IMG/VR virus record: IMGVR_UViG_3300027804_000038 | Span: 64,001 to 128,000 of that record | DNA length: 64,000 nucleotides | From: a virus | Lineage: Duplodnaviria; Caudoviricetes | Strand: one strand, 5' to 3' | In this document: positions 10,214 to 60,089 of the stretch, one piece after another | Layout: the number at the start of each line of letters is the position of its first letter | Numbering within the stretch: the first letter of the stretch is position 1 | Translations under genes and position numbers: made by a program | Notes under the pieces: model-generated | The model's database searches: none | Told to the model about the DNA's origin: nothing | What the model saw: only the letters and a program-made list of their open reading frames with translations

Positions 10214-10717
10214 TTAAAAAGCAACATTTCCCTTTAATTCTTCACAAACATTATCTAAAAAGTTCTCAATCTCATGTTCTAACCCTTCATATGTCTCAAA
10301 CAAATTAATGCCTTCAGGGTCTTCAAAATTACATGTTGAGTAAGTCCCGTTTGGTTCACAATATATTTCCCCATAAAATTCATCATTATTTACGGTTAAA
10401 TAACCAGTGTGAACCATTTCGTTAGGATTATCTTCAGTAGATTCGTATTTAAAAGACATATTAACACCCCCAATTATATCAGAAAAAATATTTTCATAAT
10501 TGGTAACTTGTGAACGTGTAACTAATTCTTCATCATCTTTAAATTTACCAGTTTCGGAATAATGTATTAAATATTTCTTTTCTTTATCTGTTAAACCCTC
10601 AAATCCTACTCTATTTATTTTATCTAAAATAGAGTCAATTTTATCCATACTTTCATTAATAATATTATTAATTATTTTGATTAATTCCGATTCTGTTATT
10701 TGTATTTTTTTTCTCAT
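10214..10717 (-). CDS. Hypothetical protein, candidate internal head protein
   Basis: N-terminus MRKKIQITESELIKIINNIINES with I-x-E sites; acidic body. Confidence 0.6.
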   Translation of the reverse strand: MRKKIQITESELIKIINNIINESMDKIDSILDKINRVGFEGLTDKEKKYLIHYSETGKFKDDEELVTRSQVTNYENIFSDIIGGVNMSFKYESTEDNPNEMVHTGYLTVNNDEFYGEIYCEPNGTYSTCNFEDPEGINLFETYEGLEHEIENFLDNVCEELKGNVAF

Positions 10718-12216
10718 TTTTTGTTAACTATTTGAAATTTAATTTGTCTTTTATAGGTTTCTGACGACCCATTTGATATGACCTTTAAGTCAATATAATA
10801 TTCATTAGGTATTTTGTCAGTAGTATCAAATATAAAATAAAATTGATTATCTGACCTATTTATTTCAGTCCAATCTTGTACTTGAACTTCAGTTTGGCCC
10901 TCTCTAACATATAGTCTATAATAAGCGTTTACATTAGACAATATCTCATTTGTACTATATGCTTTTTTAACTATAACGCCAACTTTTCTAATATCTGTAT
11001 TTAATATTTTTTCGTCTTGTTTAATACCATAAAAATCGAACCCATACAATATTGGGTCTTGACTCATTGTTGATATTTGTAAAGTATTATTATATGGTAA
11101 AAGTATTATAGTATTTGTTATATTACTTAGACTATTTCCATTGTATATTAAATTACTCCAAACGTCATATATCGTACATGGTACGTTTGTGTTACCTGTA
11201 ATTGCGGGTATTGTTACTTCATAAATCCCTTTTGATATTAGACAAGACGTTAGAGGTCCTTGTATAATACTATCTTCAGAGTCAATTATATTAACAGTTG
11301 GTGGGGTGTCTAAATTAACTAAATCACCGTCAATATATGAAAATAAATAAAGTTTATTTTCATTATTTGTCACAAAATAATTTCGATTATCTTTAATTAA
11401 ATCATTATATGATGTCTCTAAAAATGGTTCATAAAATGTTTGAGTATGCCTACTAAAAAAGGCAACTGCGTAATTTTCAGTCAACCCTGTTAAATTTTCA
11501 AGTTCAGGTGAAAAAGATATAATCCATCCCGTGTTACCAGTAGTACCACCACTTAAAATTGAGTTTATTTCATCCGTCATATCAAACTCAATATCTTCAT
11601 TACCAAATTCAAAGTGTTGAGTATCAACAATAGTTAACCCACTATAATTTACATTACCTGAATTTGTATTTGAATATATCCCATTTTGACTCCATCCTGA
11701 TATAGTTGTTGTTTGATACCAATTAGAGGGTCTCTGAGAGTAACTTTTATTTTCAGGTAGTAATATTGGAGTTATAAGTCCATTTGAAAAATTAGTTGTA
11801 TTTTGTACATCATAATAATCAGAACCTACTCCTTCATCCCAATATTGTGGATTACCAGTTGAACCCGAAATTTTAGGTATTCTGATTAAATGTAAATCAA
11901 AAGAAGTTGCTCTTAACCTCCCGTCTGACATTGAGGTATTAAGTAACTCAGTATCAAATGAAGAAGTGTTAGTCATTCTAAGTTTGTGAGTTATTCCACT
12001 AAATCCTGTACATCCTGTTGAAATAACTCCTGATGAAAATTTACTAACTAACTCGGTTAAATCTAAATCAAAAATAAACCTTGAGAAACCTTTTTGTGAT
12101 AGTACGTCATTTGCGGTACCAAAATACAATTCAGTATAAGGAGCCTTACCAGTATTTGTAAAACTATTATACAATAATGTATTATTTCTAGAAAAATATG
12201 AACGATGTATTGACAT
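10714..12216 (-). CDS. Putative virion structural protein (Ser/Thr/Gly-rich, beta-rich)
   Basis: Start moved to ATG 12216 (MSIHRSY), 13 nt after late motif; 8 [ST]GxT motifs; follows spike gene. Confidence 0.6.
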   Translation of the reverse strand: MSIHRSYFSRNNTLLYNSFTNTGKAPYTELYFGTANDVLSQKGFSRFIFDLDLTELVSKFSSGVISTGCTGFSGITHKLRMTNTSSFDTELLNTSMSDGRLRATSFDLHLIRIPKISGSTGNPQYWDEGVGSDYYDVQNTTNFSNGLITPILLPENKSYSQRPSNWYQTTTISGWSQNGIYSNTNSGNVNYSGLTIVDTQHFEFGNEDIEFDMTDEINSILSGGTTGNTGWIISFSPELENLTGLTENYAVAFFSRHTQTFYEPFLETSYNDLIKDNRNYFVTNNENKLYLFSYIDGDLVNLDTPPTVNIIDSEDSIIQGPLTSCLISKGIYEVTIPAITGNTNVPCTIYDVWSNLIYNGNSLSNITNTIILLPYNNTLQISTMSQDPILYGFDFYGIKQDEKILNTDIRKVGVIVKKAYSTNEILSNVNAYYRLYVREGQTEVQVQDWTEINRSDNQFYFIFDTTDKIPNEYYIDLKVISNGSSETYKRQIKFQIVNKK

Positions 12217-12229
12217 TATCTTTTTATAG

Positions 12230-12236
12230 ATAAATA
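12230..12236 (-). promoter_or_regulatory. Putative late promoter TATTTAT
   Basis: 13 nt before ATG 12216. Confidence 0.55.
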
Positions 12237-13856
12237 TCAATTAATTCGAATGTTTTGATTAAGAACTTTAGAATCAAAATTTTGGAATTCAATCTCTATT
12301 TCCGCAGACGTGGTTCCCTGACTAGTTACGGGAGACGGAGGTAACATATGGTAAGGGTGAGAATGGGTAATTAAGAACTTAACCACTAAATTTAAAAACT
12401 CTTTTAATTTTTCTCCTCTAACCATAGGTTCAGTATTCGGTATTATTTCGTCAAAAATTTTACTTTGAGTTATTCCATAAACACTATCTGAACCTAAATT
12501 AATTTTTTGTTTACCAGGTATCACAGAGTCATGAGAAAGAAAAATCATCTTATTACTACCCCCAACAGAAACACTATTTTTTTTCAATACTGTTTCATAA
12601 GGGTTTGTTGATATTGTTATATTTTTTTTAGATATTCCAAATTTATTGAATTGAGAAACTAGTCCACAACCCTTTTCTGATAGAAAATATGAAATAATAT
12701 TAGCCTTTGAGAATTTAACTAATGAAGTTATTTTTAATAAATTTGTTTTAATTGTTAAATTTTCAGGTGACGTTATTTCAGACATTATGTTCCTCAAATT
12801 TTTAGATGGTCGATAATAAAATGGAAATCTTTGTCCTGAAAATTGAGAGAGTTTCGGTATATAAGGTGACTTTATATCAACTGCTCCTGTATTTAAACCC
12901 TCAATAACTGAATTAATTAAAAATGTTACTCCTGATTGAGGAATCCCAACAAATTGGTAAGTAAATATTGGTGTTGTAACACTAGACGGTAACTCAGTGT
13001 TTTCCTTAAATTCATTATTTTTAACTGAGCTTGATGCTGGTATATCGTATATATAAATTGCGCCAGTGTAAGAATTTGCATTGTTATCTAAACCTTGTAT
13101 AATATCATATTCAATTAATTTAGATAATGGGGACTCATCGGTTTCACTAATTTGTGCGTTCTCTGAAGGTTGATTTATAACATCCTTACTAAAATATGAA
13201 ATCTGATAAAAACCTCGTTTTTCATTAACGTACGGAGTCGTGTTTGGAGTTATTTCTGATGTTTTTCCAGCTCTAATTAATAGTTCGTTTGGTTTTATAA
13301 TTATATCTGAAGAACCTTTACCGTATATTGCAATATCGGACAATTTATTTGGAACTCCAACTTCTGCAAATATTCCTTTTATCTTTTGATTTCTATATTC
13401 AGAAGTAGGTGTTTTTAAATTTGGTGACCCTTGAATATTCGAACCTTGAGCTGTTTGGGATAAACTTTGTGAGTAGTCCTCAGAACTAATATTAAATGGA
13501 TTAGATTTTGGACCAGGAATATAAAATTGCTCTTTCCTACCTGTATTTTTTTCAGGGTTAGAATACATCAACCATACTAATTCACCAACCTCAGGTACCA
13601 TTGTTATTGAAAACGGAATTAGAGGTAGAAAAACAAATGGGTCTAAATTTGTAAATTTAAATTCGTCTAAAATATCGCTACCGTCTTCATTAACAATTCC
13701 TTTGTCTTTATAAGAATCTAATATCTGTTGCACACTTTCGTGGTCAGGGAAAACTCTAATCCTGCTCAGAACTTGATAATCATTATTATCAATAACTCTT
13801 CCCGTAAATATTATTTTACTATGGTCAGAAACGTAATCAACAATTTTATCCCGCAT
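12237..13856 (-). CDS. Baseplate central spike protein (gp5/VgrG-like N-terminal OB fold, C-terminal HxH)
   Basis: N-terminal GRVIDNND...RIRV...LPLIP...VPEVGELVWLMY OB-fold pattern; C-terminal VRGEKL...THSHPYH metal-binding apex motif. Confidence 0.7.
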   Translation of the reverse strand: MRDKIVDYVSDHSKIIFTGRVIDNNDYQVLSRIRVFPDHESVQQILDSYKDKGIVNEDGSDILDEFKFTNLDPFVFLPLIPFSITMVPEVGELVWLMYSNPEKNTGRKEQFYIPGPKSNPFNISSEDYSQSLSQTAQGSNIQGSPNLKTPTSEYRNQKIKGIFAEVGVPNKLSDIAIYGKGSSDIIIKPNELLIRAGKTSEITPNTTPYVNEKRGFYQISYFSKDVINQPSENAQISETDESPLSKLIEYDIIQGLDNNANSYTGAIYIYDIPASSSVKNNEFKENTELPSSVTTPIFTYQFVGIPQSGVTFLINSVIEGLNTGAVDIKSPYIPKLSQFSGQRFPFYYRPSKNLRNIMSEITSPENLTIKTNLLKITSLVKFSKANIISYFLSEKGCGLVSQFNKFGISKKNITISTNPYETVLKKNSVSVGGSNKMIFLSHDSVIPGKQKINLGSDSVYGITQSKIFDEIIPNTEPMVRGEKLKEFLNLVVKFLITHSHPYHMLPPSPVTSQGTTSAEIEIEFQNFDSKVLNQNIRIN

Positions 13857-16331: not shown

Positions 16332-17084
16332 TTATTCATCATCTTCAGACGGTGAAATTAACTTTAAGTATATTTTTTTATATTTTTTCATAGACGACCT
16401 AATTTCTTTAGTTGACATGTTAGTAATTTCCCTAAGAGACAATAAAATAACATTTTTGTTAAATTTATTATTATCACTAGCTGGAAAAATAGTTTCGTAG
16501 TTTTCAAAAATATCACTTAAAGCTAAACCTAATTTATACTCGTTTTCGTTTAAATCTTCATCTTCTAAAACTTCTTTTATTAAATTAATTAAAGTTGGTA
16601 TTATATGACTATCGTCTTCTGGTTCTATATCCAGATAATAAACCATATCTTTATTGTTTTCTAAGTCACTTGAAATGTCTTCGTATGATATTTTTCTATT
16701 GAATTCTTTTTGGTCTTTTAATATTTGACCCATTAAATAGTTTTTACATATTGTACCAAAATACGAATATGCCTTTTTTTCTTTACTAGGTACAAATTTA
16801 TCTACCTTAGTCATTAAAAAAGAATGAGTGTCTGTATGGATTTCGTTAAAATCCATGTCTTTTCTGTACAATTTGTACCTTCTTATAATTGATGAAATCA
16901 TTTTATCTAATGGATATCTCAAATATTCATTATATATTTTATTTTTTTCATCAAATGTAGTGGCGGTCAGAAACATTCTAACCGCCATTTCTTCTCTAAC
17001 ATCGAAATAATTCTCGTTTTGAGATTTCTTTGTTCTTTTTCCTTCGGAAACATTTATAGTGATAGAAGATGCAGTTATTAACAT
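16332..17084 (-). CDS. Late transcription sigma factor (T4 gp55-like)
   Basis: NYF near N-terminus and region-2 motif FLMTKVDKFVPSKEKKAYSYFGTICKNYL resembling gp55 NFDPEKSKNPFAYFTQI. Confidence 0.75.
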   Translation of the reverse strand: MLITASSITINVSEGKRTKKSQNENYFDVREEMAVRMFLTATTFDEKNKIYNEYLRYPLDKMISSIIRRYKLYRKDMDFNEIHTDTHSFLMTKVDKFVPSKEKKAYSYFGTICKNYLMGQILKDQKEFNRKISYEDISSDLENNKDMVYYLDIEPEDDSHIIPTLINLIKEVLEDEDLNENEYKLGLALSDIFENYETIFPASDNNKFNKNVILLSLREITNMSTKEIRSSMKKYKKIYLKLISPSEDDE

Positions 17085-17887
17085 TAAGCATTTTCTAAAT
17101 ATTTTATATTTCTATCATCAACAAAATAATATTCTTTTTTTGCGGTAGAAATCCAAAACTTCACCTCGTCCTCCGATAATCTAGTATCCCCATTTTTGTA
17201 TTCCCAAAATAAAGATTCATCTCTCATATTAACGTGTTTGTATCCAATTCTTGGGATTGTCATAATTTTTACTGAATTGTATGTCATTCTTAAAAGAAAT
17301 TCATAAACAAATGTTAGTTTCATGCTTGATTTAAATCCCCCAAAATTTTCTAAAACTTCTTTTTTAATAACCATTCCTGCGGTTTGGAAATTTTGATAAT
17401 TATGTAACATATCATTTGTCAATATTCCCATTTCTTGTGCGAAATTGGCTGCAAAGGTTGCTTCATTTGTGAATCCCGCAAAAGAAAGTTTGTTATCAAC
17501 ATCAATTACAATTGGTAAAAATGCTTCTGAATCTGGATATATGTCAGAATATTTTTTTACATTTTTAAACCATATTTGAGAATATTCATCATCAAACTCA
17601 AAAAATGAAATCCATTCTGATTTAGATTCTTTAATACCTAAATTTATTTGTGACGAATAATTTGGTTCACCATCGTACAACACTTTATTTACTTCTAAAC
17701 CTGTAAAATCAAAAGAGTTTAAAAAATTAACTAAAGTTTCTTCATTAGTGTGAACAATAACTAATTCTTTAGGTTTTACCTGTTGAGTCCTAATAGAGTC
17801 TATTGCTTTTTTAAAAAAATCTTCAAAATCTTTTACCTTAGAAGATTTAATAGGTAGTATTACTGATAAATTTAAAATGTTTTCCAT
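17084..17887 (-). CDS. Glycosyltransferase, GT2/GT-A fold
   Basis: LSVILPI start, INLGIKESKSEWISFFEFDDEY DxD-like motif. Confidence 0.8.
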   Translation of the reverse strand: MENILNLSVILPIKSSKVKDFEDFFKKAIDSIRTQQVKPKELVIVHTNEETLVNFLNSFDFTGLEVNKVLYDGEPNYSSQINLGIKESKSEWISFFEFDDEYSQIWFKNVKKYSDIYPDSEAFLPIVIDVDNKLSFAGFTNEATFAANFAQEMGILTNDMLHNYQNFQTAGMVIKKEVLENFGGFKSSMKLTFVYEFLLRMTYNSVKIMTIPRIGYKHVNMRDESLFWEYKNGDTRLSEDEVKFWISTAKKEYYFVDDRNIKYLENA

Positions 17888-17892
17888 ATTTT

Positions 17893-18954
17893 TTACGATT
17901 CAATTGTTTGGTGTTTATTCAATTCTCCCTCAAATATTTTTGTCCTAATCTCACTATAATGATTAAATGTTTTAACTACTTCTTCTTTAAAGTTATTCTC
18001 GTTTGAGAACTTTTCTACGGTCTCGTAACCCCCTTCGTATAATTTATCAGAAATATTATCCTCTAACCAATTCTGTATAAAATCCGCAACCAAGTCTGGT
18101 AATCTAATAATATCTTGAACCCAAATACCGTTATTTTCATTTATCCAAGAAGGTACCATTTTTGGAAGTTTACCCATTACAGGAACACCCGATTTCATAG
18201 ATTCTAGTGGGTAGGTTCCAAATGAACTGATGTCGTCAATCCAAATAGATAACATACAATCTTTAAGAGTATTTGCAAATTGTTCTTGAGAAACTCCCAT
18301 CATATCTCTAAATGATATCCATCTATATTGAGGAAATTTTACATAGAATAATTTAATAAAATTAATTGAATCTCTATGTTCTCTTGAATGAATTGCAATA
18401 ATTGGCTTTGCAGGATATGTAGGCTTTTCAAACACATTTGAAATTGTTGGTTCAATAACATCAATTGACGTATTTCTCATTACTGATGAAATATATTCTT
18501 TCATTTTTTCAGATGTAGTAATACATTTTGTAAATCCAAATTGACCCCATGTTTGTCCAGGTTGCAAAGTTTCAAAAATGTAATCATATGATTGACATAA
18601 TACTATCTTAGCACAAGGAAGATTAACTAATTGAGGCATTACATATCCTAAAATTTCAGGAACAATTATCGTATCCTCTGGAGATATTGCCAAATTCTTA
18701 CCCTCAACAGAGATGTGTTCGAGATTTTCCATGTATTTTGAACCTAACCAATCCTGTACTCCAAAATAATCGGGTTTTTCATGTAAAATAATTGCATTAT
18801 GACCATTTTCTTTTAATGATAAAGCCATGTCATAAATGTATTTAATAGACGCTTTAGCATTACCCTTAGTGTCTTGTACAAAAAAATAAATTCTAGCTGA
18901 TTTATTTTTTAAATTTTCAATAGATTGTTCTAATTTTTTTACTATTTCGCTCAT
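17893..18954 (-). CDS. Glycosyltransferase, GT-B fold (GT4-like)
   Basis: IIVPE motif; C-terminal SSFGTYPLESMKSGVPVMG donor-binding motif. Confidence 0.75.
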   Translation of the reverse strand: MSEIVKKLEQSIENLKNKSARIYFFVQDTKGNAKASIKYIYDMALSLKENGHNAIILHEKPDYFGVQDWLGSKYMENLEHISVEGKNLAISPEDTIIVPEILGYVMPQLVNLPCAKIVLCQSYDYIFETLQPGQTWGQFGFTKCITTSEKMKEYISSVMRNTSIDVIEPTISNVFEKPTYPAKPIIAIHSREHRDSINFIKLFYVKFPQYRWISFRDMMGVSQEQFANTLKDCMLSIWIDDISSFGTYPLESMKSGVPVMGKLPKMVPSWINENNGIWVQDIIRLPDLVADFIQNWLEDNISDKLYEGGYETVEKFSNENNFKEEVVKTFNHYSEIRTKIFEGELNKHQTIES

Positions 18955-20603: not shown

Positions 20604-21596
20604 TTAATCATTATTATTTTTTTTGTTGTCATAGTATACCATCCAGTAGTCAATCATTTCATCTAACATTGACTCAAACGTATACTCATGAGTCCATCCA
20701 GTTGCGTTTACAAGTTTAGAAGAATCTCCTTTTAGATTATTTAATTCTTCAGGTCTCAAAAATTTTTCATCTTGTTTAATATATTCAGACCAATGTAGAC
20801 CCAATCTAGTGAAAACATAATTTACAAGTTCCTTTACAGAATGAGAAACTCCTGTCGCACAAACAAAATCATCTGGATTATCTAATTGTAATATTTCCCA
20901 CATTGCTTTTACATAATCTTTAGCGTGCCCCCAATCACGAGTTGCGTCTAAATTACCTAATTTTAATTCGTTTGATAACCCCAATTTAATTTTAACTGCC
21001 TCCTTACATACTTTATTTGTTACAAAGTTTGTCCCCCTTCTTGGTGATTCGTGATTAAATAATATTCCGTTCGAAATAAACATACCATATGAATTTCTAT
21101 AATTACGACATATATTGTAACTAAAAACTTTTGCACATCCATATGGAGATACTGGATTCATCGGTGTTGTTTCTCTTTGGAATCCGTCAGAATCAATTGA
21201 ATTACCAAACATTTCTGATGATGACGCTTGATATATTTTAGTATCAGGTTTAACTAATTTAACGGCTTCAAGTAAATTTAATGTACCTAATCCTGTAACA
21301 TTAGATGTATAAATTGGCTGGTCAAATGAAATCCTAACGTGAGATTGTGCCGCTAAATTATAAATCTCATCAGGTTTTATTTTTTGAATTACTGAAATTA
21401 ATGATGATATGTCAGTCAAATCTGCATAATGAAGTTTTACTTCATTATAAACTTCATTTAATCTAGAAGTTTGATTTTCAGAGACTGAGTTTCTTTTTAG
21501 AGTACCGTGAACCTCATAACCCTTTTCTAATAAAAATTCAGATAAATATGAACCATCCTGACCATTAATTCCTGTAATAAGTGCAATTTTATTCAT
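20604..21596 (-). CDS. gmd: GDP-mannose 4,6-dehydratase
   Basis: ITGINGQDGSYLSEFLL, YNLAAQSHV, YQASSSEMFG, SPYGCAK, LFNHESPRRG, LGNLDATRDWGHAKDY. Confidence 0.97.
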   Translation of the reverse strand: MNKIALITGINGQDGSYLSEFLLEKGYEVHGTLKRNSVSENQTSRLNEVYNEVKLHYADLTDISSLISVIQKIKPDEIYNLAAQSHVRISFDQPIYTSNVTGLGTLNLLEAVKLVKPDTKIYQASSSEMFGNSIDSDGFQRETTPMNPVSPYGCAKVFSYNICRNYRNSYGMFISNGILFNHESPRRGTNFVTNKVCKEAVKIKLGLSNELKLGNLDATRDWGHAKDYVKAMWEILQLDNPDDFVCATGVSHSVKELVNYVFTRLGLHWSEYIKQDEKFLRPEELNNLKGDSSKLVNATGWTHEYTFESMLDEMIDYWMVYYDNKKNNND

Positions 21597-21994
21597 TATT
21601 TTTTTGTGTTTTTAATTTTTAAAAATTCATCAAAGTCAAGAATGTAGTCATTTTTATCATACTCTGTTGAACAGATAACTAATAAAACGGAGTCTTCCGA
21701 TAAAAATTTTTGGGAGTCCCATATTAGTTTATCAACTAATACAAATTCACCCTTTCTTATTGTTGTTATTTTTTCTGATATACCGTCATGTAAAATAACT
21801 TCAATGGTTCCTGATACACATATTAGAATTTGAATAGTTTCAAAATGAGAGTGATTACCTCTAATTGTATTTTTTGGGACATTACTAACGGTAAAAACTC
21901 TTTGTGGTTTAAATGGGAAATGACTAAAGTCAACAGGTATTAAATCACCTCTTAAATCGCTAAATATACTTAATTTATTTATTTTTTTTTCCAT
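21596..21994 (-). CDS. Sugar 3,4-ketoisomerase (FdtA/QdtA cupin)
   Basis: DLRGDL, PFKPQRVF, RGNHSHF, Q.LIC..G, LLVICSTEYDKNDYI. Confidence 0.9.
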   Translation of the reverse strand: MEKKINKLSIFSDLRGDLIPVDFSHFPFKPQRVFTVSNVPKNTIRGNHSHFETIQILICVSGTIEVILHDGISEKITTIRKGEFVLVDKLIWDSQKFLSEDSVLLVICSTEYDKNDYILDFDEFLKIKNTKK

Positions 21995-22905
21995 TCTTTA
22001 ATTAAACTAATGATATGGTTAATATCAAAATTTGTCAATTCTTCATGGAAAGGTATAGATACTGTCGTAAGTGAATCAATTTCAGATAAAGGACAGTTTG
22101 AATCTTTTTTAAAATATACAGGGTGGTTATGCAACGATTCATAGTGTATTCCACAAATCACACCATTTTGACGCATAAATGAAATAAATTCGTTTCTATT
22201 ATTTACTGAAATTCGATATAGGTGATTGCTAATATTATCATAACCTAATTCTTTGTTATAAATTTCTCTAATTTCATTTAATTTAGATAATTTGTTTTCG
22301 TATTTTTTAAAGTTTCTAAATGCAATATCACATTGTATACTGTTCATGTACATTTTATAACCAGGAAATTTAATTTTCCTTTCCCAGTTATTGTCAGAAT
22401 ATGACATTCCATTTAATGCCATCTCTTTTAATTTTACTATTTTATCTAAATCATTAGATACTATCATACCACCATCACAAGACCCTACTGGTTTAGTTGG
22501 GTAAAAACTAAATATCATTAAATCTTGCGGATTACATTCATTAATAAATTGATTTTTTTCTAGTTTTTGCGCGGAGTCTATTACTTTATAATCCCCAAAA
22601 TCATGTAGTAAATACGAGTTTCCCACCCAATTTATATCATCATAAAATTCATAATTATTGCCTGAGGTTATTATGGCGTTAACAACAACTGGAGGTATAA
22701 TACTTGGAATTTTAACTTTTAAATTTTTATACTGTAAAAAAAGTAAAAAAATAGCACTTGTTGCACTATTAAAACTTACCCCATGCTTAGCCCCAACGTA
22801 TTCACAAATTGAAGACTCGAATTCGGTGACAATATTATCATGTAATAAATTACTATAATTTGAAGTGTCAATTGTGTGGTTGTTTATGTTAAATAAATTT
22901 ATCAT
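21979..22905 (-). CDS. DegT/DnrJ/EryC1/StrS PLP-dependent sugar aminotransferase (short, 308 aa)
   Basis: SFNSATSA, IDSAQ, FSFYPTKPVGSCDGGM with catalytic Lys, GYKMYM, VSIPFH. Confidence 0.88.
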   Translation of the reverse strand: MINLFNINNHTIDTSNYSNLLHDNIVTEFESSICEYVGAKHGVSFNSATSAIFLLFLQYKNLKVKIPSIIPPVVVNAIITSGNNYEFYDDINWVGNSYLLHDFGDYKVIDSAQKLEKNQFINECNPQDLMIFSFYPTKPVGSCDGGMIVSNDLDKIVKLKEMALNGMSYSDNNWERKIKFPGYKMYMNSIQCDIAFRNFKKYENKLSKLNEIREIYNKELGYDNISNHLYRISVNNRNEFISFMRQNGVICGIHYESLHNHPVYFKKDSNCPLSEIDSLTTVSIPFHEELTNFDINHIISLIKEWKKK

Positions 22906-23702
22906 ATTAATTTATAAAATTTATAGTCATTATTACCCCCATTTCTATATAGTTCTTTCCAAAAAACATCCCTGAAGTAGTCGCTATTATTTTTGTAATT
23001 TACAACCCAATCGTAACTATGAATTATTTTTTTATTTTTATTACCGCAAAAAGATGCGGATATTACAAAAGTCGATGGAGATGAAATAACATATTTACAT
23101 TCTGAAATTTTAGTAAAATCTTCTTTAAAATTAGACACATTTCCAGTAGAATAACCAATTTTTAAAAAATTTAAATACTCAATAGTTTTAATATAGGATT
23201 CTAAATTTGTGTCATCAGAAAATAAAATATAATTATAGTCTTCTTCATTTATTTCAGACCTAACAAAATCTATACTATTTTTATAATATTCAAAAGGTAA
23301 TATTGATTTAGGGTCCCATTGATGAAAGTCTCCACCTCTAAAATGAATTGCCACATTTTTTTTGGTTAAATCTATATTCTTATATTTAAAAATATCGTAG
23401 GTAGACAAAGTAGAAAATTCATAAAAATACTCTAATAATGAAGGTTCTAAATAATATATTTTATCATTATCTAATGATACCTCAAATTTATTTTTTATTA
23501 GAAAATTAACATCTAATATTTCATATTGTTCTTTATTATATTCTCTTGTTTTATTTCCAACCTCAAATAACTCTAGTCCATTAAATTCAGTAAAAAAATA
23601 ATCTTGATTATAAAATTTAGATATCTGTATTAAATTATTTAATCCTATTATTTTATTACCAAATTGGTACCCATTCCAATTATTAAAATTAGTAATAATC
23701 AT
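22902..23702 (-). CDS. GT11 family (alpha-1,2-fucosyltransferase-like) glycosyltransferase
   Basis: N-terminal GYQFGNKI, VAIHFRGGDF, ILFSDD, ISSPSTF. Confidence 0.8.
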   Translation of the reverse strand: MIITNFNNWNGYQFGNKIIGLNNLIQISKFYNQDYFFTEFNGLELFEVGNKTREYNKEQYEILDVNFLIKNKFEVSLDNDKIYYLEPSLLEYFYEFSTLSTYDIFKYKNIDLTKKNVAIHFRGGDFHQWDPKSILPFEYYKNSIDFVRSEINEEDYNYILFSDDTNLESYIKTIEYLNFLKIGYSTGNVSNFKEDFTKISECKYVISSPSTFVISASFCGNKNKKIIHSYDWVVNYKNNSDYFRDVFWKELYRNGGNNDYKFYKLI

Positions 23703-23703
23703 A

Positions 23704-24177
23704 TTAGTATTTTATTTTAAATTTTGACATAGTATCCACAGATTCTAATAGTTCTAAAAATTTTAAAGCTTTTTTATATTCAGGTCTAAAAAAATCATGT
23801 ATAAATACAATAGTATTTTCATTACCTAAAAGATTACAGATTGACGCACATGATACTCTAGCTCTACCATCTATTAAAATAACATCAAAAGGGGCGTAAT
23901 TTAGTGGTGAATTAACATATGTATAAAACTCTTCATAAGAACCGTCATCTCCACCTTCGGTATAATCTAAATCAGGTGCGGAGTATATTAAAGTACAATT
24001 ATTTGGTTTTTTTTTAGATATATCCTTATACCAATTTTCTTGATGCTCAACTGAGACTATTGTTTTACACCTATTGGCAATTTCTATTGTAGAATACCCA
24101 CTTCCATACTCCAAAACTTTTTTTGTTTCATCAATGTGGGACATAAAAAAAAATTCTTCAGATTTGTTAGCGAACAT
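23704..24177 (-). CDS. SAM-dependent methyltransferase (probable sugar O-methyltransferase)
   Basis: VLEYGSGYST, VSVEH, DVILIDGRAR, VFIHDF. Confidence 0.8.
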   Translation of the reverse strand: MFANKSEEFFFMSHIDETKKVLEYGSGYSTIEIANRCKTIVSVEHQENWYKDISKKKPNNCTLIYSAPDLDYTEGGDDGSYEEFYTYVNSPLNYAPFDVILIDGRARVSCASICNLLGNENTIVFIHDFFRPEYKKALKFLELLESVDTMSKFKIKY

Positions 24178-24180
24178 AAT

Positions 24181-24819
24181 TTACAGTAAATTTTTTTTAA
24201 CATAAAGAGCGTCACCCCAACCTCCGCCATGATATTCATGAGTCATTGTTCTTATAAAACCATGTTCACTTAAAGATTCATCCATTTCATTAATCAAATG
24301 GCATCCGTCATACATATGTATTGTGTTTATTTCAGTGTATATAAAATCCATATTTTTTAAAAACTCGCCCATTGATAATATCACATTTAAGTCAGCTCCC
24401 TGAACGTCAACATTCATAAAATTAAAATCATCAATTTTAATATAGTTTTCAATTAGTAATGTATCCATCCTTTTTGTTACCATTTCAATTTGGTCAACAT
24501 AAACAACATCTGAAAATTTATTTTTATGTTCTTTTAAATCTAAAATAGAAGATGATTGGCCGTTATTACTTATATTGAATTTTACTTTTTTTTCAGAATC
24601 GTAAATTACTTCATTAATTGTAATAATATTTTCATTACCTAAAAATTTATTTTTTAAATTACCATATAATTTTGGATTACCCTCAACCCAAATAATTTTA
24701 TTAATACCTATTTCATTATAGTCGTCATATTCTTCAGCTTCGTGAGCTCCAACATGTATAATCCCTTTAATTGGTATATTTTCGTATTTTGTTTTAATTT
24801 CTTTAATCTTAATAAACAT
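24181..24819 (-). CDS. FkbM family methyltransferase
   Basis: IIHVGAH, WVEGNP, SSIL, FMNVDVQGADL, YTEIN..MYDG, WGDALY. Confidence 0.9.
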   Translation of the reverse strand: MFIKIKEIKTKYENIPIKGIIHVGAHEAEEYDDYNEIGINKIIWVEGNPKLYGNLKNKFLGNENIITINEVIYDSEKKVKFNISNNGQSSSILDLKEHKNKFSDVVYVDQIEMVTKRMDTLLIENYIKIDDFNFMNVDVQGADLNVILSMGEFLKNMDFIYTEINTIHMYDGCHLINEMDESLSEHGFIRTMTHEYHGGGWGDALYVKKNLL

Positions 24820-24820
24820 A

Positions 24821-25414
24821 TTATACTCTTTCTATTAATATTGATTTACCAAACTCACTATCTAATTCTTCAATAATTCTATGCTCAGACAATAAATTTT
24901 TAAACTCTTCTTCGGAAATAAATGACCTAACAGTGGTTAAATTACCATATGTATTGTATTCATTAATTTTACCTTCTTTTGAACAATATTGTCTATGAAT
25001 TATTAAATATTTTTTAGTGTTTTTTAATATCTGACTTAACACAGGTATTGGTTCTGGCAATTCAGATAAAAAACTATTACATAATAATATATCGTATTTT
25101 TTAAAAAAAGTATAGTCAAAACTATATGCGTCAAATTCAAAATATTCTAAATTTGGGTTAACTTTTTTCGCAACATCTTCAATAATATGAGGTAAATCAA
25201 ATCCGCTATAATTTAACTTGCTATAAACCCTCCCGACTTCTCCAGCCCCACATCCTATGTCCGCAATATTATCACAGTTGCATTTATTTATTAGATTATT
25301 AAGATATGGAAAATGAGCAGCATTTTCTAAACGACCCCATCCATTTAAACCCATAGCACCTCTAACCATTTCGTTAGGTAATATATCAGTATTATACCAA
25401 GCAGTTTTTTTCAT
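24821..25414 (-). CDS. Class I SAM-dependent methyltransferase
   Basis: IADIGCGAG, YSGFDL, YDILLCNSFLSEL. Confidence 0.8.
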   Translation of the reverse strand: MKKTAWYNTDILPNEMVRGAMGLNGWGRLENAAHFPYLNNLINKCNCDNIADIGCGAGEVGRVYSKLNYSGFDLPHIIEDVAKKVNPNLEYFEFDAYSFDYTFFKKYDILLCNSFLSELPEPIPVLSQILKNTKKYLIIHRQYCSKEGKINEYNTYGNLTTVRSFISEEEFKNLLSEHRIIEELDSEFGKSILIERV

Positions 25415-25423
25415 AGTTTTTAA

Positions 25424-28974: not shown

Positions 28975-28975
28975 T

Positions 28976-29875: not shown

Positions 29876-29888
29876 GTTTAATCATTAT

Positions 29889-30770: not shown

Positions 30771-30774
30771 TATT

Positions 30775-46274: not shown

Positions 46275-46655
46275 ATGGAATTTTTCATAAAACAAGGTGC
46301 GACTTTACCGTTATTAAAAATGCAATTCTTTGAGGATGGAAAATCCTCTATGGATGATTTTAATTCTTTGGTTGAAAATTCAGCTATTTATTTTTCGATG
46401 AAAAATGCTGAGACGGGAGTATATAAATTTTTAAATAAACCTGCGGGTATTACAACGAAGACATTTATTGAACCTAATGCCAAGGTAGAATATTATATTT
46501 ACTATAAATTTTCTTCTTCAGATACTAATAAAGTTGGTAGATATGAAGGGGAATTTTTAATAGTGTCTGATGATGGTACTGCAATTCTACCAATTACTGA
46601 AAAATTATACATAAACATTGGAGAAAAATTTGTAATTAATGGACTTTTATATTAA
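46275..46655 (+). CDS. BppU-N-like virion adaptor protein
   Basis: Start moved to ATG 46275 (MEFFIKQGATLP), 5 nt after late motif; Y.F...DT..VG.YEGEF.I pattern. Confidence 0.65.
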   Translation: MEFFIKQGATLPLLKMQFFEDGKSSMDDFNSLVENSAIYFSMKNAETGVYKFLNKPAGITTKTFIEPNAKVEYYIYYKFSSSDTNKVGRYEGEFLIVSDDGTAILPITEKLYINIGEKFVINGLLY

Positions 46656-47571
46656 AAAAGGAGCTTCATTACCGATATTAAAAGTCGAGATGTGTTTAGA
46701 TGGTAGAAGTGACTATCACCTTAACTCTTATATTAACAGTGAGTTACCTGTTTATTTATCATTAATTAACGAATCAAATGGTACTATTTTGTTCGCCTCA
46801 AAAGAGTGTTTTGTAACTTCTGAATTTTCTTCGTTTGAAAATAAAATGTTGTATTATATTAATTACCAATTTACTAGAAAGGAAACTAATGAAATAGGTA
46901 AATTTACAACTCAATTTTCTATATCAAGTGATAATGGTGTAGTATTACTTCCATTAAAAGAGAAGATATATGTAAACATAATTGACTCATTTTCTGTTAA
47001 TGATTTTGGAAGTCAATCAAAATATATCGTAGACTTACCATGTTGCAATCCCCCAAATCCAACACCAACCCCGACACAGACCCCAACACCTACTCAAACT
47101 CAAACACCGACACAAACTAACACTCAAACACCTACACAGACGCAAACACCTACACAAACACAAACGCAAACGCCTACACAAACCCAAACACCTACGCAGA
47201 CTAGTTCGCAGACCCCAACTCCAACATTAACCCCAACCCAAACAAATACCCCAACACCGTCAAATAGTAATTTTATTTATTCTTTTACATCAAATTCTTC
47301 AATAAATACTTTAAGGATTGACGATGTAACTTTAGGTTACTCAATTATTGTAACTACAAATACTACTTCTAATTTTATATTACCTAGTGGAAATACATAT
47401 AGAGTTAGGTTAATCTTTACCCCTGGTGGAGGTTCATCCGCAACTTTAAGATTGACTAAAAATGGAGTTGCAATATTCGATAGTACAATTCTATCACCAG
47501 GCACTCTGGATACGGGTAATTTAGTCGCAACAAATGCTCAATACATTTGTACCGCAACGATTCCAAAATAG
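46639..47571 (+). CDS. BppU-N-like domain + Pro/Thr/Gln mucin-like linker + C-terminal beta domain
   Basis: N-domain paralogous to upstream gene (MDFYIKKGASLP); ~70 aa PT/QT repeat. Confidence 0.7.
   Translation: MDFYIKKGASLPILKVEMCLDGRSDYHLNSYINSELPVYLSLINESNGTILFASKECFVTSEFSSFENKMLYYINYQFTRKETNEIGKFTTQFSISSDNGVVLLPLKEKIYVNIIDSFSVNDFGSQSKYIVDLPCCNPPNPTPTPTQTPTPTQTQTPTQTNTQTPTQTQTPTQTQTQTPTQTQTPTQTSSQTPTPTLTPTQTNTPTPSNSNFIYSFTSNSSINTLRIDDVTLGYSIIVTTNTTSNFILPSGNTYRVRLIFTPGGGSSATLRLTKNGVAIFDSTILSPGTLDTGNLVATNAQYICTATIPK
47050..47262 (+). repeat. Coding low-complexity repeat (PTPTPTQTPTPTQTQ...)
   Basis: Imperfect 6-12 nt period with varied synonymous codons. Confidence 0.95.
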
Positions 47572-55581: not shown

Positions 55582-56643
55582 ATGGCTTTACCAAAAAAAA
55601 TTAAAAAAAATATAAATTTAACTAATCCTAAGACAGGTTTTGCCAGACGAGAAGAATTGGTTGACATTATAAATGAAAATGGTACTTATTTACCTAAATC
55701 AATTCTACATGCCGATTTAGATAGAGGTTTTTTAGATTTTGTAAAAAATGATTTAGAAATATCAACGGACAGTGGAAAAAAAGTTCCTGTAATTGATATT
55801 ATTATTACAACTCAAAATTGGGCACAGTTTACACAAACATGGAATTTTAATGATTTAGATAAAAACGTTTTACCTCCATTTGTAACAACAGTAAGAACCC
55901 CTGAAGTTAAATACGGTACCTTACCATCATTAAGATGGAATATACCTAATAGAAAACAATATTTTTATGCTGCAGTACCAAATTTTAATAATGGTAGAAA
56001 GGGAGTTGATATATACACAATACCACAACCAGTTCCTGTAGATATAAAATATTCAGTTAGGATAGTTTGCAATAGAATGAGAGAATTAAATTCTTTTAAC
56101 AAAAAAGTTATTGAGACATTCGCATCTAGACAAGCATATACTGTTGTTAAAGGTAATTACATCCCAATAATTTTAGATGAAATTCAAGACGAGTCAGTAA
56201 TGGACTTAGAAAAAAGAAAATTGTATATACAGACCTATAATTTTACTCTACAGGGTTTTTTAATTGATGAGAATGAATTTGAAGTGAAGCCTGCGGTTAG
56301 TAGAGCTTTTACAATAATGGAAATTAATACTGGTAAAACTAGGTCTAAAAAACCTAAAGCACAACCTGAAAATATTAATATTATACCTTTTAACATTAAT
56401 TTTCCATTGTCTACAACGGCATTTACCTACACTTTTGAATATAATTCAAACTTAACACAAGACGGGATATCAAACATTTCAAACTACGATGTTTATATTA
56501 ATAACTTGTATTATGGTAGTAATATTCTGAGCAGTACAGGTAATACAATTCAGGTTAACACAAATGATGTTCTAACTATTAATATAACAAAGACAAATGC
56601 TTTAGACCCATCTATATTACAATGGACATCTAAAATAGTTTAA
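55582..56643 (+). CDS. Tail completion/terminator protein (T4 gp15-like)
   Basis: PQPVPVDIKYSVRI, Y.Q.Y.F.L.G.L pattern; precedes sheath. Confidence 0.65.
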   Translation: MALPKKIKKNINLTNPKTGFARREELVDIINENGTYLPKSILHADLDRGFLDFVKNDLEISTDSGKKVPVIDIIITTQNWAQFTQTWNFNDLDKNVLPPFVTTVRTPEVKYGTLPSLRWNIPNRKQYFYAAVPNFNNGRKGVDIYTIPQPVPVDIKYSVRIVCNRMRELNSFNKKVIETFASRQAYTVVKGNYIPIILDEIQDESVMDLEKRKLYIQTYNFTLQGFLIDENEFEVKPAVSRAFTIMEINTGKTRSKKPKAQPENINIIPFNINFPLSTTAFTYTFEYNSNLTQDGISNISNYDVYINNLYYGSNILSSTGNTIQVNTNDVLTINITKTNALDPSILQWTSKIV

Positions 56644-56909: not shown

Positions 56910-59900
56910 ATGGCTACATCAAACAAAGTTTTTGTTTCTCCAGGTGTTTACACATCTGAAAGAGACTTATCATTTGTGGCACAAAGTGTTGGTGTAACAA
57001 CTTTAGGTATTGTTGGGGAGACACAAAAAGGACCCGCTTTTGAACCTATTTTTGTGACTAACTATGATGAGTTCCAATCGTATTTTGGAGGTACCTCACC
57101 TGAAAAATTTGTGAACACGCAAATACCTAAATATGAAGCGGCATATATTGCTAAATCATATTTACAACAATCTAACCAATTATTTGTAACAAGAATATTG
57201 GGGTTATCGGGATATGACGCTGGTCCGTCATGGTCTATTAAAACAATTGCGAATGTTGATTGTAATACAATAGGATTTAACGGTACTGCAACAACATCTT
57301 CATTTACTTTTACAGGAACAAGTGCGTCAACATCATCAATTACACTAACAAGTGTTCCATCCCCAATCTCATCTATTATTAATGATGTCTATACAGAATT
57401 TGATGGAGGAACTTCAAGTATTTCTGAGCAAATTCAAACTCAGTTATTGAATGTTATGAGGTCAACAGGTACTTCTGCAACTTCAATATACTACTTTGGA
57501 GCTATGTCAGGAGCGTCAATAACTGCGGCAATAGGGTCAGGATATACATCACCAACAAATGTTTATTCAGTATCCTCAATTACTGCAGAAACTATTGATT
57601 ACTGTTCAGGTTTAAATGACGCATGGTACTATTCACAGTTTAGTCCCGTTGGTACTACTTCATATTCAGGATTTTCGTTTAATACTTATGTCACTAAATT
57701 AGCTGCTTTAGGTACGCCAGGTCAATATTCAGGTATAGTAACAACTACTGTTAATACTTTTTCAGGTACCCCTTACACTAATTACAGTGATTTAGTAATT
57801 GCAACATTACGTTCAAGAGGTATTACTAATTACAGTTCAACACAATCAGGACCTTTATACCAAGTTAGTGCAACTTCGGCAGTTACTATGGTTTGTACAG
57901 GTTCTTATTCAGGAGTTAGTGAAAATCCGTTTAATACATTTGTAATTTCAGGTGTGACATACCAAGGTTCTAATTTCTCATTTGAGACTTCTTTTGAGAT
58001 TGCTAATTCTAATTATATTACTAAGGTATTTGGTTCAGGTAATTTTGATAAAGACAGAACAGAAGTTCCTTTGTTTGTTGAAGAGCGTTACCAAACCTTA
58101 TTACAATATGGTTATAATAAAGGATATATTAGAGGTTTAAGTTGTTCTTTAGAGTCTTTACCTGAAGCTAGAAACTTAGACACTTCATCAATAGCCAATT
58201 ATTTAGAAAGATATCAAACAGCATTCTCACCATGGGTAGTTTCAGAATTACGTGGTAATAAAGTTTATGAATTGTTTAGATTTGTAACAATATCTGACGG
58301 AGACGCTGCGAACAGAGAAGTTAAAGTTTCTTTAGCAAATATGTCATTTAATAACCAAACATTTGACGTAATAGTTAGAGATTATTATGATAACGACTCA
58401 AATCCTGTGGTACTTGAGAAATTCACTAACTGTACTATGGACCCTGATTTGAATAGTTATATAGCTAAAAAAATCGGTTCGACTGACGGTGAATACGCAA
58501 TACTTTCTAAGTATATAATGGTTGAAATGAACTATGATGCACCGATAGACGCACTTCCATGTGGTTTTGAAGGTTACATTATTAGAACTTATGGAGGAGC
58601 AACTTCACCATTCCCTGTATACAAAACTAAGTATGATTTCCCAGGTGAAGTAATTTATAACCCTCCATTTGGTAACACTAATGGTACTGACGATTCTGTT
58701 ACAAGTTCTGGAGATAATGTTAGAAGAACTTACTTAGGATTCTCAACTTCATTAGGGTTTGATTCTGACTTCTTTGAATATAAAGGTAAACAAGTTCCAA
58801 CTTCTTGGAGTTGTTCAGAACAAGATTACAGTAATTGGGGTGACTTAACTAAAGGTTTCCACATGGATAGTGGAGCAACTGCGGTTACGATATCTTCAAC
58901 ATACTCAACATCAGGTCAATCGGCCTTTGAAGTCGGAGATTCATCATTCTCTCAAGAACCAACAAGTTCAAGCGACCCATATTACAGACTTTATTCTCGT
59001 AAATTCACTGTGTGTGTTTACGGTGGTTTTGACGGATGGGATATCTATAGAGAATACAGAACAAATGAAGATAGATTCATCCTTGGTGAATCAGGATATT
59101 TAGCGGGAGCACAAGCAGGTTGTTCACCTTACACAAACGCAACTGGATGGGGGGCGTTTAAGAGAATCACTGTTGGTGATAACGTAGTTGATTGGGCAAA
59201 TACTGACTATTACGCTTACTTATTAGGTATTAGAAGTTTTGAAAATCCTGAAGTTACTAACATAAACGTTTTAGTTACTCCTGGTATTGACTTTGTTAAT
59301 AACTCAAACTTAACTGAGGCGACTATTGATATGGTTGAAAACGATAGAGCGGATTCAATCTATATTGTAACTAGTCCTGACTTTGACCTATACCAACCAT
59401 CAACTTCTATGGATAACTTAATCTATCCTCAAGAAGCGGTTGATAATTTAGAAACAACAGGTATAGATTCTAACTACACCGCAACTTACTATCCTTGGGT
59501 TCTTACTCGTGATACGGTTAATAACACTCAAATCTATATTCCAGCAACCGCAGAAGTTACAAGAAACTTGGCGTTAACTGACAATATTGCATTCCCTTGG
59601 TTCGCAACTGCGGGATACACAAGAGGTGTTGTAAACGCAATCAGAGCAAGAAAACGTTTAACTCAAGAAGATAGAGATACTCTATACAAAGGAAGAATTA
59701 ACCCGATTGCAACATTCAACGATGTTGGTACTGTAATATGGGGTAATAAAACACTTCAAATTAGAGAGTCGGCTCTTGATAGAATAAATGTTAGAAGATT
59801 GTTGTTACAAGCTCGTAAATTGATTTCAGCGGTGGCTGTAAGATTATTGTTTGAACAAAATGATAACGTAGTTAGACAACAATTTTTAGACTCAGTTAAT

Positions 59901-60089
59901 CCAATATTAGACGCTATTAGAAGAGATAGAGGATTATATGACTTTAGAGTTACCGTACAAAATACACCTGAAGATTTGGATAATAACCAATTAGTTGGTA
60001 AAATTTACATAAAACCAACAAAATCTTTAGAATTTATTGATATTGAATTCTTAATTACTCCTACAGGTGCTAGTTTTGAAGATATCTAA
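56910..60089 (+). CDS. Tail sheath protein (T4 gp18-like) with Ser/Thr-rich insertion
   Basis: SPGVYTSE.DLS, VGETQKGPAFEP, YYPWV, PWFATAGYTRG, RINPI, WGNKTL, LDRINVRRLL. Confidence 0.96.
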   Translation: MATSNKVFVSPGVYTSERDLSFVAQSVGVTTLGIVGETQKGPAFEPIFVTNYDEFQSYFGGTSPEKFVNTQIPKYEAAYIAKSYLQQSNQLFVTRILGLSGYDAGPSWSIKTIANVDCNTIGFNGTATTSSFTFTGTSASTSSITLTSVPSPISSIINDVYTEFDGGTSSISEQIQTQLLNVMRSTGTSATSIYYFGAMSGASITAAIGSGYTSPTNVYSVSSITAETIDYCSGLNDAWYYSQFSPVGTTSYSGFSFNTYVTKLAALGTPGQYSGIVTTTVNTFSGTPYTNYSDLVIATLRSRGITNYSSTQSGPLYQVSATSAVTMVCTGSYSGVSENPFNTFVISGVTYQGSNFSFETSFEIANSNYITKVFGSGNFDKDRTEVPLFVEERYQTLLQYGYNKGYIRGLSCSLESLPEARNLDTSSIANYLERYQTAFSPWVVSELRGNKVYELFRFVTISDGDAANREVKVSLANMSFNNQTFDVIVRDYYDNDSNPVVLEKFTNCTMDPDLNSYIAKKIGSTDGEYAILSKYIMVEMNYDAPIDALPCGFEGYIIRTYGGATSPFPVYKTKYDFPGEVIYNPPFGNTNGTDDSVTSSGDNVRRTYLGFSTSLGFDSDFFEYKGKQVPTSWSCSEQDYSNWGDLTKGFHMDSGATAVTISSTYSTSGQSAFEVGDSSFSQEPTSSSDPYYRLYSRKFTVCVYGGFDGWDIYREYRTNEDRFILGESGYLAGAQAGCSPYTNATGWGAFKRITVGDNVVDWANTDYYAYLLGIRSFENPEVTNINVLVTPGIDFVNNSNLTEATIDMVENDRADSIYIVTSPDFDLYQPSTSMDNLIYPQEAVDNLETTGIDSNYTATYYPWVLTRDTVNNTQIYIPATAEVTRNLALTDNIAFPWFATAGYTRGVVNAIRARKRLTQEDRDTLYKGRINPIATFNDVGTVIWGNKTLQIRESALDRINVRRLLLQARKLISAVAVRLLFEQNDNVVRQQFLDSVNPILDAIRRDRGLYDFRVTVQNTPEDLDNNQLVGKIYIKPTKSLEFIDIEFLITPTGASFEDI

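Follow-up and report, generated by a model that had tools for sequence, protein, structure and literature searches.

We know of very few cases of glycosylated tailed-phage virions, and of no sequence rule for the sites that carry their glycans. In Bacteroidota, a general O-glycosylation system recognises the sequon D-(S/T)-(A/I/L/V/M/T), operates in the periplasm and draws on a lipid-linked glycan, whilst the polypeptide α-N-acetylglucosamine (GlcNAc) transferases of family GT60 include Skp1 Gnt1 of Dictyostelium and Thr-directed enzymes of Dictyostelium and Trypanosoma cruzi. Amongst viruses, mycobacteriophage virions are reported to be glycosylated by phage-encoded glycosyltransferases (GTs) at the C-termini of capsid and tail-tube subunits (Freeman et al. 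2023, summarised in PMC12619734), and the chlorovirus major capsid protein is glycosylated at atypical sequons, N-T-x-T and NIPG (PMC9614988). The subject here is a tetrapeptide, [ST]-[GA]-x-T, that recurs in proteins encoded by a 64,000-nucleotide stretch of phage DNA (the window), which comprises bases 64001-128000 of the 293,850-bp IMG/VR virus record IMGVR_UViG_3300027804_000038. The best-supported reading of the motif, ahead of a structural turn, is a recognition site for a trans-acting enzyme. That it is specifically a glycosylation acceptor motif, read by a phage enzyme on surface proteins, is a serious possibility from the sequence evidence set out below, although its chances are judged to be slightly under even.

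The record (GC content 30%, CheckV 100%) belongs to a T4-like jumbo phage of lake origin, which encodes a family-B polymerase, a capsid protein of the Gp23 type and a sheath enlarged by a long insertion. Its nearest capsid relatives in GenBank, from an uncultured huge phage, a Flavobacterium phage and a Microcystis phage, are 40–45% identical. SprB repeats in its fibre-like proteins point to Bacteroidota, which therefore probably provide the host. Enrichment is expressed throughout as the number of motifs observed against the number expected from amino-acid composition (O/E), and in the comparison of genomes a protein is termed enriched at a Poisson p<1e-3.

Motif enrichment in proteins A and B and across genomes

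Strong enrichment within the window is limited to two proteins. Protein A (39050-41200, plus strand) is a Cys-rich protein of 716 aa with 10.5% Thr that contains 13 copies of [ST]GxT against 1.15 expected, or 15 of [ST][GA]xT. Protein B (10714-12240, minus strand) is annotated with 508 aa, or 500 aa from the likely ATG start at 12216, and contains 8 copies against 0.67 expected, with seven motifs lying in its N-terminal 260 residues. These are exactly the instances listed in the first-pass annotation of the window, which had also remarked, correctly, that more than half of the [ST]G dipeptides in both proteins are followed by Thr at +2 (13 of 23 in protein A and 8 of 15 in protein B), against none of the five in the 975-aa DNA polymerase.

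The enrichment in proteins A and B is not compositional. When the sequences were shuffled within 20-residue windows, the 15 copies of [ST][GA]xT in protein A stood against 1.9 and the 8 in protein B against 1.1, and none of 300 shuffles reached the observed number. The excess is confined to the coding frame (181 against 41.7 in the motif-rich genes), with the other five frames at or below expectation, and the motif is encoded by ordinary mixed codons, which rules out a DNA-level motif or codon artefact. There is some ground for suspecting a statistical artefact of post hoc pattern choice in Thr/Gly-rich, low-GC proteins, given that the pattern was picked by eye, that the carriers are Thr-rich (10–20%) and that motif counts in three proteins of the window, the ‘spike’, the PT-repeat protein and a 632-aa protein, lie at expectation. 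Yet in an unbiased genome-wide scan of all a-b-x-c patterns SAxT ranked first, SGxT fourth and TGxT fifth (z 10.2, 7.8 and 7.2), and the excess, besides withstanding local shuffling and being frame-specific, is reproduced in independent genomes and in sets of 59 and 80 homologues. An artefact is refuted for proteins A and B and is very improbable as an explanation overall.

The same scan indicates that the motif is broader than the [ST]GxT first described. The excess of that form is real, but position 2 may also be Ala: SAxT is the most over-represented of all the patterns in the whole genome, with 55 copies against 15.3 expected, whilst TGxS and SGxS are exactly at expectation. The only enriched residues are S or T at position 1, G or A at position 2 and T at position 4, at about 2.4–2.6-fold each. 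Asp or Asn at position 1 scores 1.1–1.2 and Ser at position 4 scores 1.0; N-G-x-T in particular has an O/E of 1.1, compared with 2.4–2.5 for Ser and Thr at position 1. At position x the residues K, R and H are depleted and Leu is preferred, and both flanks, −1 and +4, are hydrophobic, with −1 rich in L, I, V and Y.

Over the whole genome 214 copies of [ST][GA]xT are found against 85 expected. The excess might have vanished on correction for composition, but it remains, and the whole of it lies in about 20 large Thr-rich proteins of 329; the other approximately 309 open reading frames (ORFs) score 34 against 44.5, or 0.76. Carriers outside the window include a 1154-aa fibre-like protein (34 against 6.4), SprB-repeat proteins, a leucine-rich repeat (LRR) protein and several unannotated proteins of the fibre cluster. 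SprB and LRR matches are restricted to three proteins, all of them outside the window. The top carriers are unrelated by BLAST with the exception of three paralogous pairs, and these pairs apart, a common repeat or paralogy amongst the carriers is ruled out.

Four further genomes display the same excess. The O/E is 2.51 in this genome (G000; 8 enriched proteins), 2.28 in G001 (IMGVR_UViG_3300034117_001582; 11 enriched proteins), 2.10 in G003 (89% complete; 5), 2.41 in the complete G007, whose protein B is only 36% identical (8), and 2.66 in G008 (10), the values for G001 and G008 being calculated with low-complexity proteins left out. G001 encodes at least one low-complexity protein, extremely rich in S, T, N and G, that dominates pattern counts ([ST]NxT is observed 415 times) and was excluded to see the motif signal. 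No enriched protein is found in T4 (1.14), Microcystis phage Mel-JY01 (1.32), Flavobacterium phage immuto (1.48), the huge phage LR756508 (1.19), Xanthomonas phage XacN1 (0.90) or the 92-kb fragment G010 (28% complete; 0.86), and the SprB-repeat adhesins of Portibacter, with the same Thr/Gly content, score 1.28. These outgroup phages and bacterial adhesins rule out a general property of Thr/Gly-rich adhesins or of T4-like virions. Known structural repeats (SprB, LRR and the fibre repeat) are likewise rejected as the sole source, on the basis of the SprB adhesins and of the lack of a family match in proteins A and B. Motif enrichment is hence specific to one phage lineage, on a comparison in which the motif-free relatives are represented by fragments. 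Amongst GenBank phages no homologues were found of protein A, of protein B or of two of the transferases discussed below, GT2a and GT2_5+GT4.

Protein A has no match in Pfam, PHROG or PDB sequences. An atlas feature search leads to Laminin_G_3 clusters, which offers a lead towards a LamG/ConA-like jelly-roll, and the protein is probably a virion surface or host-binding protein. Many of its Cys residues are conserved, with several conserved motifs between them, as in C-S-x-T-G-V-T-N-S-x-C and C-x-T-T-G-x-T-Y-x-T-G-Y-T...C. The short O-glycosylation motifs of EGF and TSR modules also sit between Cys residues, and the pattern in protein A recalls them. A gene between the GT genes and that of protein A (37071-37472) encodes a small protein of 133 aa that weakly matches a WYL domain. 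Protein B has no Pfam or PHROG family match, and profile searching of PDB sequences was uninformative. As its gene keeps synteny with the Gp23 major capsid gene across divergent lineages, it is probably a surface protein associated with the head or neck.

Other proteins of the window carry the motif less densely. A 353-aa protein encoded upstream of the sheath (55582-56643, plus strand) and labelled ‘gp15-like’ contains TGKT, TAFT and TGNT, a modest 3 against 0.34, with 5 against 0.9 in its G001 homologue; it has no Pfam or PHROG family match. The tail sheath (56910-60089, plus strand; 1059 aa) has a large clade-specific insertion and Pfam and PHROG sheath domains at residues 768-1056. The first-pass annotation had put about 10 copies of [ST]Gx[ST] in it, mostly in the insertion, and 10 were counted (3.4 expected), nine of them at residues 135-668, N-terminal to the Pfam sheath domains. 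Its [ST][GA]xT excess is weak (8 against 3.1, p about 0.05; all at residues 126-657), and [ST]GxT alone gives 3 against 1.7. The Gp23-type major capsid protein, which also has insertions (5498-7327, plus strand; Pfam Gp23 1e-71), has four motifs against 1.35 expected, amongst them the TGAT and SGLT noted before; this excess too is weak, and no motif is C-terminal. The PT/TPTQ-repeat protein (46639-47571, plus strand) has 17.7% Thr and a single motif, SGNT, against 1.0 expected, and the ‘spike’ has the reported SGVT. The claim that the motif is concentrated in virion proteins therefore holds strongly for proteins A and B, modestly for the 353-aa protein and weakly for the sheath and capsid, but not for the spike and PT-repeat protein. 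The labels ‘spike’ and ‘gp15-like’ find no profile support and depend upon synteny and fold hints.

Homologue families and predicted structures

The excess is kept in close homologues of protein A (59 loci) and of protein B (80 loci), with 6–15 motifs against about one expected in the homologues of protein A. At several sites the form [ST]-G/A-x-T persists, with Ser and Thr freely interchanged, Gly replaced by Ala and x variable. Protein A has ten conserved motif columns, such as position 127, which is retained in 31 of 31 sequences with x variable. Amongst the sites of proteins A and B, TGLT 251 is retained by 57 of 58 close homologues.

A profile search expanded the B family to 754 representatives. 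Of 109 that are full-length, 35 have no motif and 18 have one, whilst a second mode lies at 4–5 with a maximum of nine. The fold can thus do without the motif altogether. Where relatives are motif-poor, unrelated residues take the place of the motif-bearing loops, or the loops are deleted. Motif state is strongly clustered on the tree of the B family, where one clade of about 40 rows is entirely motif-poor and at least 11 switches in motif state, all with good support, fall in the rich half. The representative P0006, with no motifs, is sister to the protein B studied here, with eight, and to P0001, with nine. At the loci of motif-free B homologues the neighbouring proteins, including the capsid protein, are also at expectation.

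A different pattern of change is seen in the sheath and the capsid. The sheath of G000 has eight motifs and that of G001 ten (3.4 expected in the latter), mostly at different positions, and the sheaths of outgroup phages have between none and five. In the capsid protein SG[LY]T at position 330 is the only site common to G000, G001 and G003. In the sheath and capsid of G000 and G001 the excess is kept at shifting positions inside clade-specific insertions. Lineage-specific motif instances occur at 1.6 and 1.0 times expectation, compared with 0.3–1.1 times for ten control patterns; relative to expectation they are two to three times more frequent than these controls.

The AlphaFold2 model of protein A, built on a 23-sequence alignment, had a predicted local distance difference test (pLDDT) score of 41 and was too poor to map motifs. 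The model of protein B is of moderate quality (pLDDT 64.5). In it all eight motifs are in DSSP coil, a class that takes in 55% of the residues. Typically the motif occupies the final three positions of a loop that leads into a β-strand; three or four of the motifs fall in loops modelled with low confidence. A Foldseek search with the model of protein B returned only generic Ig-like tandems, and tandem Ig-like sandwiches are predicted at its C-terminus.

Some of these features would be expected if Φ-[ST]-[GA]-x-T-Φ (Φ, hydrophobic) were a loop-to-strand junction or β-bulge that is favoured for the folding or stability of β-rich surface domains and that nothing reads. The motifs directly precede β-strands in the model of protein B. 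The hydrophobic −1 and +4 positions, together with Leu as the favoured residue at x, hint at an element of a strand edge that is partly buried. Conserved columns hold about 57–67% of the instances in proteins A and B, as would be the case for a structural motif, TGLT 251 is retained in nearly all close homologues, and the conserved core is enriched 10-fold in protein A and 7-fold in protein B, whereas the variable segments of protein A are enriched by only 1.7-fold. Known structural repeats, namely SprB and the fibre repeat ‘LSGGTxTG’, supply some of the instances too. The structural explanation is, though, difficult to reconcile with the 35 motif-free members of the B family that share its fold, with the replacement or deletion of motif loops in relatives and with the loss of all eight or nine sites together in single lineages. 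Moreover, analogous proteins of T4, immuto, Mel-JY01, LR756508 and XacN1 and the bacterial SprB adhesins have no excess, the Asx-turn equivalents with Asp or Asn at position 1 are not enriched, and in the sheath and capsid the sites turn over while the excess stays. A purely structural role is on the whole unlikely, though it deserves to be taken seriously.

The case for a recognition site over such a role is that the motif has a sharp residue profile, occurs in a single class of proteins and a single lineage, is not needed by the fold, and comes and goes as a whole set. The first-pass annotation had suggested that the same short motif in unrelated folds looked like the site of a modifying enzyme, and its residue specificity, its confinement to about 20 mostly unrelated proteins of one lineage and the motif-free members of the B family uphold that suggestion.

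Relatives of the phage yielded some observations of a separate kind. The motif-free sister of the protein B studied here comes from a relative whose capsid gene adjoins a Mom-like gene (PF25680; L335:5432-6448). The head module of a marine relative includes a gene for ribosomal protein S21 (PF01165), flanked by those for the prohead protease and the portal (L336:16699-16893). An IMPDH-like gene is apparently split by an insertion with a Hint domain and a NUMOD3 homing endonuclease, a possible intein or homing element (L344:7748-10294), and a short viral contig carries a gene for IS605 OrfB/TnpB (Cas12f-like) at a distance of 2 kb from a member of the B family (L342:4348-5589).

Glycosyltransferase genes and candidate readers

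Profile searches support 7–9 GT-like genes in the window, between 16332 and 46257, fewer than the approximately 14 first claimed. They comprise two GT2 genes, a GT8, a GT-D-like gene, a phrog_14945 gene, a bifunctional Glyco_tranf_2_5 and GT4 gene (GT2_5+GT4), a weak GT1, a GT60 and an HtrL/YibB-like gene. Several lie in a nucleotide-sugar and glycan-tailoring island recognised by profile matches (20604-32303, minus strand), which encodes GDP-mannose 4,6-dehydratase (GMD), FdtA, two DegT aminotransferases, FkbM and another methyltransferase, a PglD-like acetyltransferase and an epimerase along with the GT-D-like, GT2, GT8 and phrog_14945 transferases. The segment 21596-32303 is unique to this genome, and only GMD of the island is common to G001 and G003. 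As the content of the island differs between G000, G001 and G003, it resembles a hypervariable glycan locus such as an O-antigen cluster. No multi-pass membrane proteins are encoded in the window and consequently no flippase, polymerase, oligosaccharyltransferase or initiating phosphotransferase is present there, which fits assembly on a soluble cytoplasmic acceptor.

Both G001 and G003 retain four of the genes, GT2a, GT2_5+GT4, GT1 and GMD. The bifunctional GT2_5+GT4 (32275-33933, minus strand; Pfam) and the GT1/GT-B-like transferase (35206-36420, minus strand; weak Pfam matches) are present in all five motif-rich genomes, and are the remaining clade-wide candidates for a reader of the motif. 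The sugar and GT island, of 13 kb, stands between dUTPase and PhoH in this genome, and in a syntenic marine relative the two genes are neighbours (L336:1145-2519). That relative is motif-free and, since dUTPase and PhoH abut there, the slot lacks the segment with GT2_5+GT4, the island and GMD. GT2a (PF00535), which belongs to a conserved block, unk250-GT2a-unk353 (16332-18954, minus strand), is rejected as the cognate enzyme: it is kept in the same motif-free marine relative and in G010 and so is not sufficient for the motif. On a comparison of relatives, as first envisaged, GT2_5+GT4 and GT1 stay no more than candidates, and GT2a and GT60, which also occur in motif-free phages, are not sufficient for the motif.

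The GT60-family (PF11397) protein directly downstream of protein A (41240-42484, plus strand; Pfam 1.9e-68, phrog_24687 1.4e-170) is a polypeptide GlcNAc-transferase-like enzyme, matching the profile over the catalytic domain with 231.9 bits against a curated cut-off of 21. No transmembrane segment was found in it, and it is predicted to be soluble. It heads a block of small genes that are low in Thr and free of the motif; four genes travel with it (236, 289, 187 and 555 aa; 42489-46257, plus strand), and the same follower block is found in G004 and at many loci. The N-terminal half of the 555-aa protein is HtrL/YibB-like (TIGR02192, 7e-21, below the cut-off; phrog_842, weak). In a survey of 80 GT60 loci (L244-L323) with 53 distinct upstream neighbours, GT60 always heads 3–6 small, low-Thr (4–5%) genes, and the gene directly upstream is Thr-rich in 48 of the 53 contexts (median 15.4% Thr). 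The block has the look of a mobile cassette for ‘mucin-type’ O-glycosylation, docking behind one fibre-like gene or another. Literature searches for GT60 in phages found nothing.

XacN1 ORF334 is a GT60 protein 48% identical to that of the window, with a similar downstream operon. Within XacN1 210153-235496 it is followed by a carbamoyltransferase gene and three genes like the GT60 followers of the window; ORF330 is 43% identical to the 555-aa protein, and a GT9 gene and a gene for a giant 3222-aa protein are nearby. Schiff staining detected glycoproteins in XacN1 virions as two positive bands (PMC5852040, Supplementary Fig. S4), a precedent for virion glycoproteins in a phage with a homologous GT60. 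GT60 is rejected as a sufficient reader of [ST][GA]xT, given the O/E of 0.90 in XacN1 in spite of its GT60, a pooled O/E of only 1.16 for the upstream neighbours of GT60, and the placement of GT60 directly after protein A at only 13 of 59 protein A loci. Its neighbours being Thr-rich but motif-poor, and XacN1 having no motif excess, GT60 appears to be part of a Thr-rich, mucin-like module and more probably serves Thr-rich stretches than the motif. The PT/TPTQ-repeat protein is a candidate for such a mucin-like substrate.

Several results weigh against a glycosylation sequon. In addition to the absence of a motif excess from XacN1 and from the GT60 neighbours, and the retention of GT2a where the motif is missing, none of the transferases follows the presence and absence of the motif cleanly. 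One motif-free homologue has a stand-alone PF13712 gene 10 kb away, and the absence calls rest on fragments such as G010 and on the incomplete G003. Some of the GTs in the window may modify DNA: GT1 lies beside dUTPase and an exonuclease and so could act on DNA instead of protein, and it is 28% identical to GTs of Phapecoctavirus and Campylobacter phages, which may modify their DNA. Nor does loss always extend to the whole genome, for in one B subgroup most sites have gone although protein A, encoded on the same contig, still has 13. Some of the genome-wide count stems from internal fibre repeats, including the ‘LSGGTxTG’ motif, and from SprB repeats, and the placing of proteins A and B on the virion derives from synteny and fold hints.

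A reader of another kind would be accommodated by much of the same evidence, in that the arguments for a trans-acting reader leave its chemistry unspecified. A kinase, a sulfotransferase, an acyl- or methyltransferase or an assembly chaperone might recognise the motif, or the motif might bind a host surface ligand, and the island does encode methyl- and acetyltransferases. Against this, neither a kinase nor any other enzyme that modifies proteins came to light in the window, and the sugar and GT genes, which are conserved with the motif in five genomes, are by far the largest set of candidate machinery. Such a reader is accordingly regarded as improbable, and a glycosyltransferase is preferred.

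Proposed glycan coat and relation to known systems

If the motif is a glycosylation acceptor, [ST]-[GA]-x-T, usually with hydrophobic flanks, would be displayed in loops of about twenty surface proteins of a jumbo-phage lineage, namely fibre-like, SprB-repeat, LRR, LamG-like and Ig-like proteins and, more weakly, the insertions of the sheath and capsid. It would be read by a phage-encoded enzyme in the cytoplasm of the infected cell, most likely a soluble O-glycosyltransferase that places a sugar on Ser/Thr at position 1 or on Thr at position 4. Further soluble transferases would then extend the glycan with unusual nucleotide sugars supplied by the variable island at 20604-32303, and the outcome would be a strain-specific glycan coat on the virion. 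The analysis shows the statistics, residue specificity, protein set, phyletic distribution and evolutionary behaviour of the motif, together with a set of soluble sugar and GT genes; modification itself, its glycan nature and the enzyme responsible are inferred. Taken as a whole, a new four-residue sequon for O-glycosylation (or for another modification), served by cytoplasmic phage transferases in a widespread lineage of freshwater jumbo phages, with a hypervariable island supplying strain-specific glycans and a coat gained and lost as a unit, is put forward tentatively, at rather worse than an even chance.

Were the motif a true sequon, it would be the first readable code for phage virion glycosylation and would render glycosylated virion proteins predictable from metagenomes. 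An abundant lake and marine jumbo-phage lineage, represented by hundreds of contigs, would be dressing its fibres, sheath and head in strain-specific sugars, with a bearing on host recognition, on resistance to grazing and proteases and on immune recognition. The motif and its enzyme would also make a compact pair of tag and enzyme for engineering. Should the motif prove purely structural, the way in which it is gained and lost in concert across unrelated folds would still be unusual and call for an explanation.

Literature searches for a sequon of the [ST]GxT type found nothing, and none of the known sequons matches, since that of Bacteroidota needs Asp at −1, that of chloroviruses needs Asn and the glycans of mycobacteriophages are C-terminal. 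The repeat ‘LSGGTxTG’, widespread in phage tail fibres, and the SprB repeat (PF13573) contain [ST]-G-G-T and account for some of the fibre instances outside the window; unlike these structural fibre and adhesin proteins, proteins A and B are without such repeats. In common with GT60 enzymes, the protein at 41240-42484 is a clear member of PF11397, is predicted to be soluble and is encoded beside Thr-rich genes, but, unlike what would be expected of a motif reader, its partners are Thr-rich in general and not motif-rich.

Like the Bacteroidota sequon, which is that of the phylum of the probable host, [ST]-[GA]-x-T would be an O-glycosylation motif of three to four residues on many unrelated proteins, although the −1 residue here is L, I, V or Y and not Asp, and the window has no membrane machinery. 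The mycobacteriophages are similar as tailed phages with their own GT genes near structural genes, and the virion would be decorated in the cytoplasm here too if the present reading is right. However, their C-terminal glycan placement, shown by experiment, is not matched, as the motifs are spread along the chains with only four in the capsid protein, and the candidate sites here are a tetrapeptide across loops of about 20 proteins, mainly fibre- or adhesin-like. The chloroviruses share with this phage virus-encoded soluble GTs and sugar-nucleotide enzymes and a short, non-canonical sequon with Thr at +3, and their glycans, which are strain-specific with methylated and rare sugars, resemble those proposed for the phage. 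They differ in being eukaryotic viruses in which the acceptor is Asn and only the capsid protein is modified, whereas here N-G-x-T is close to expectation.

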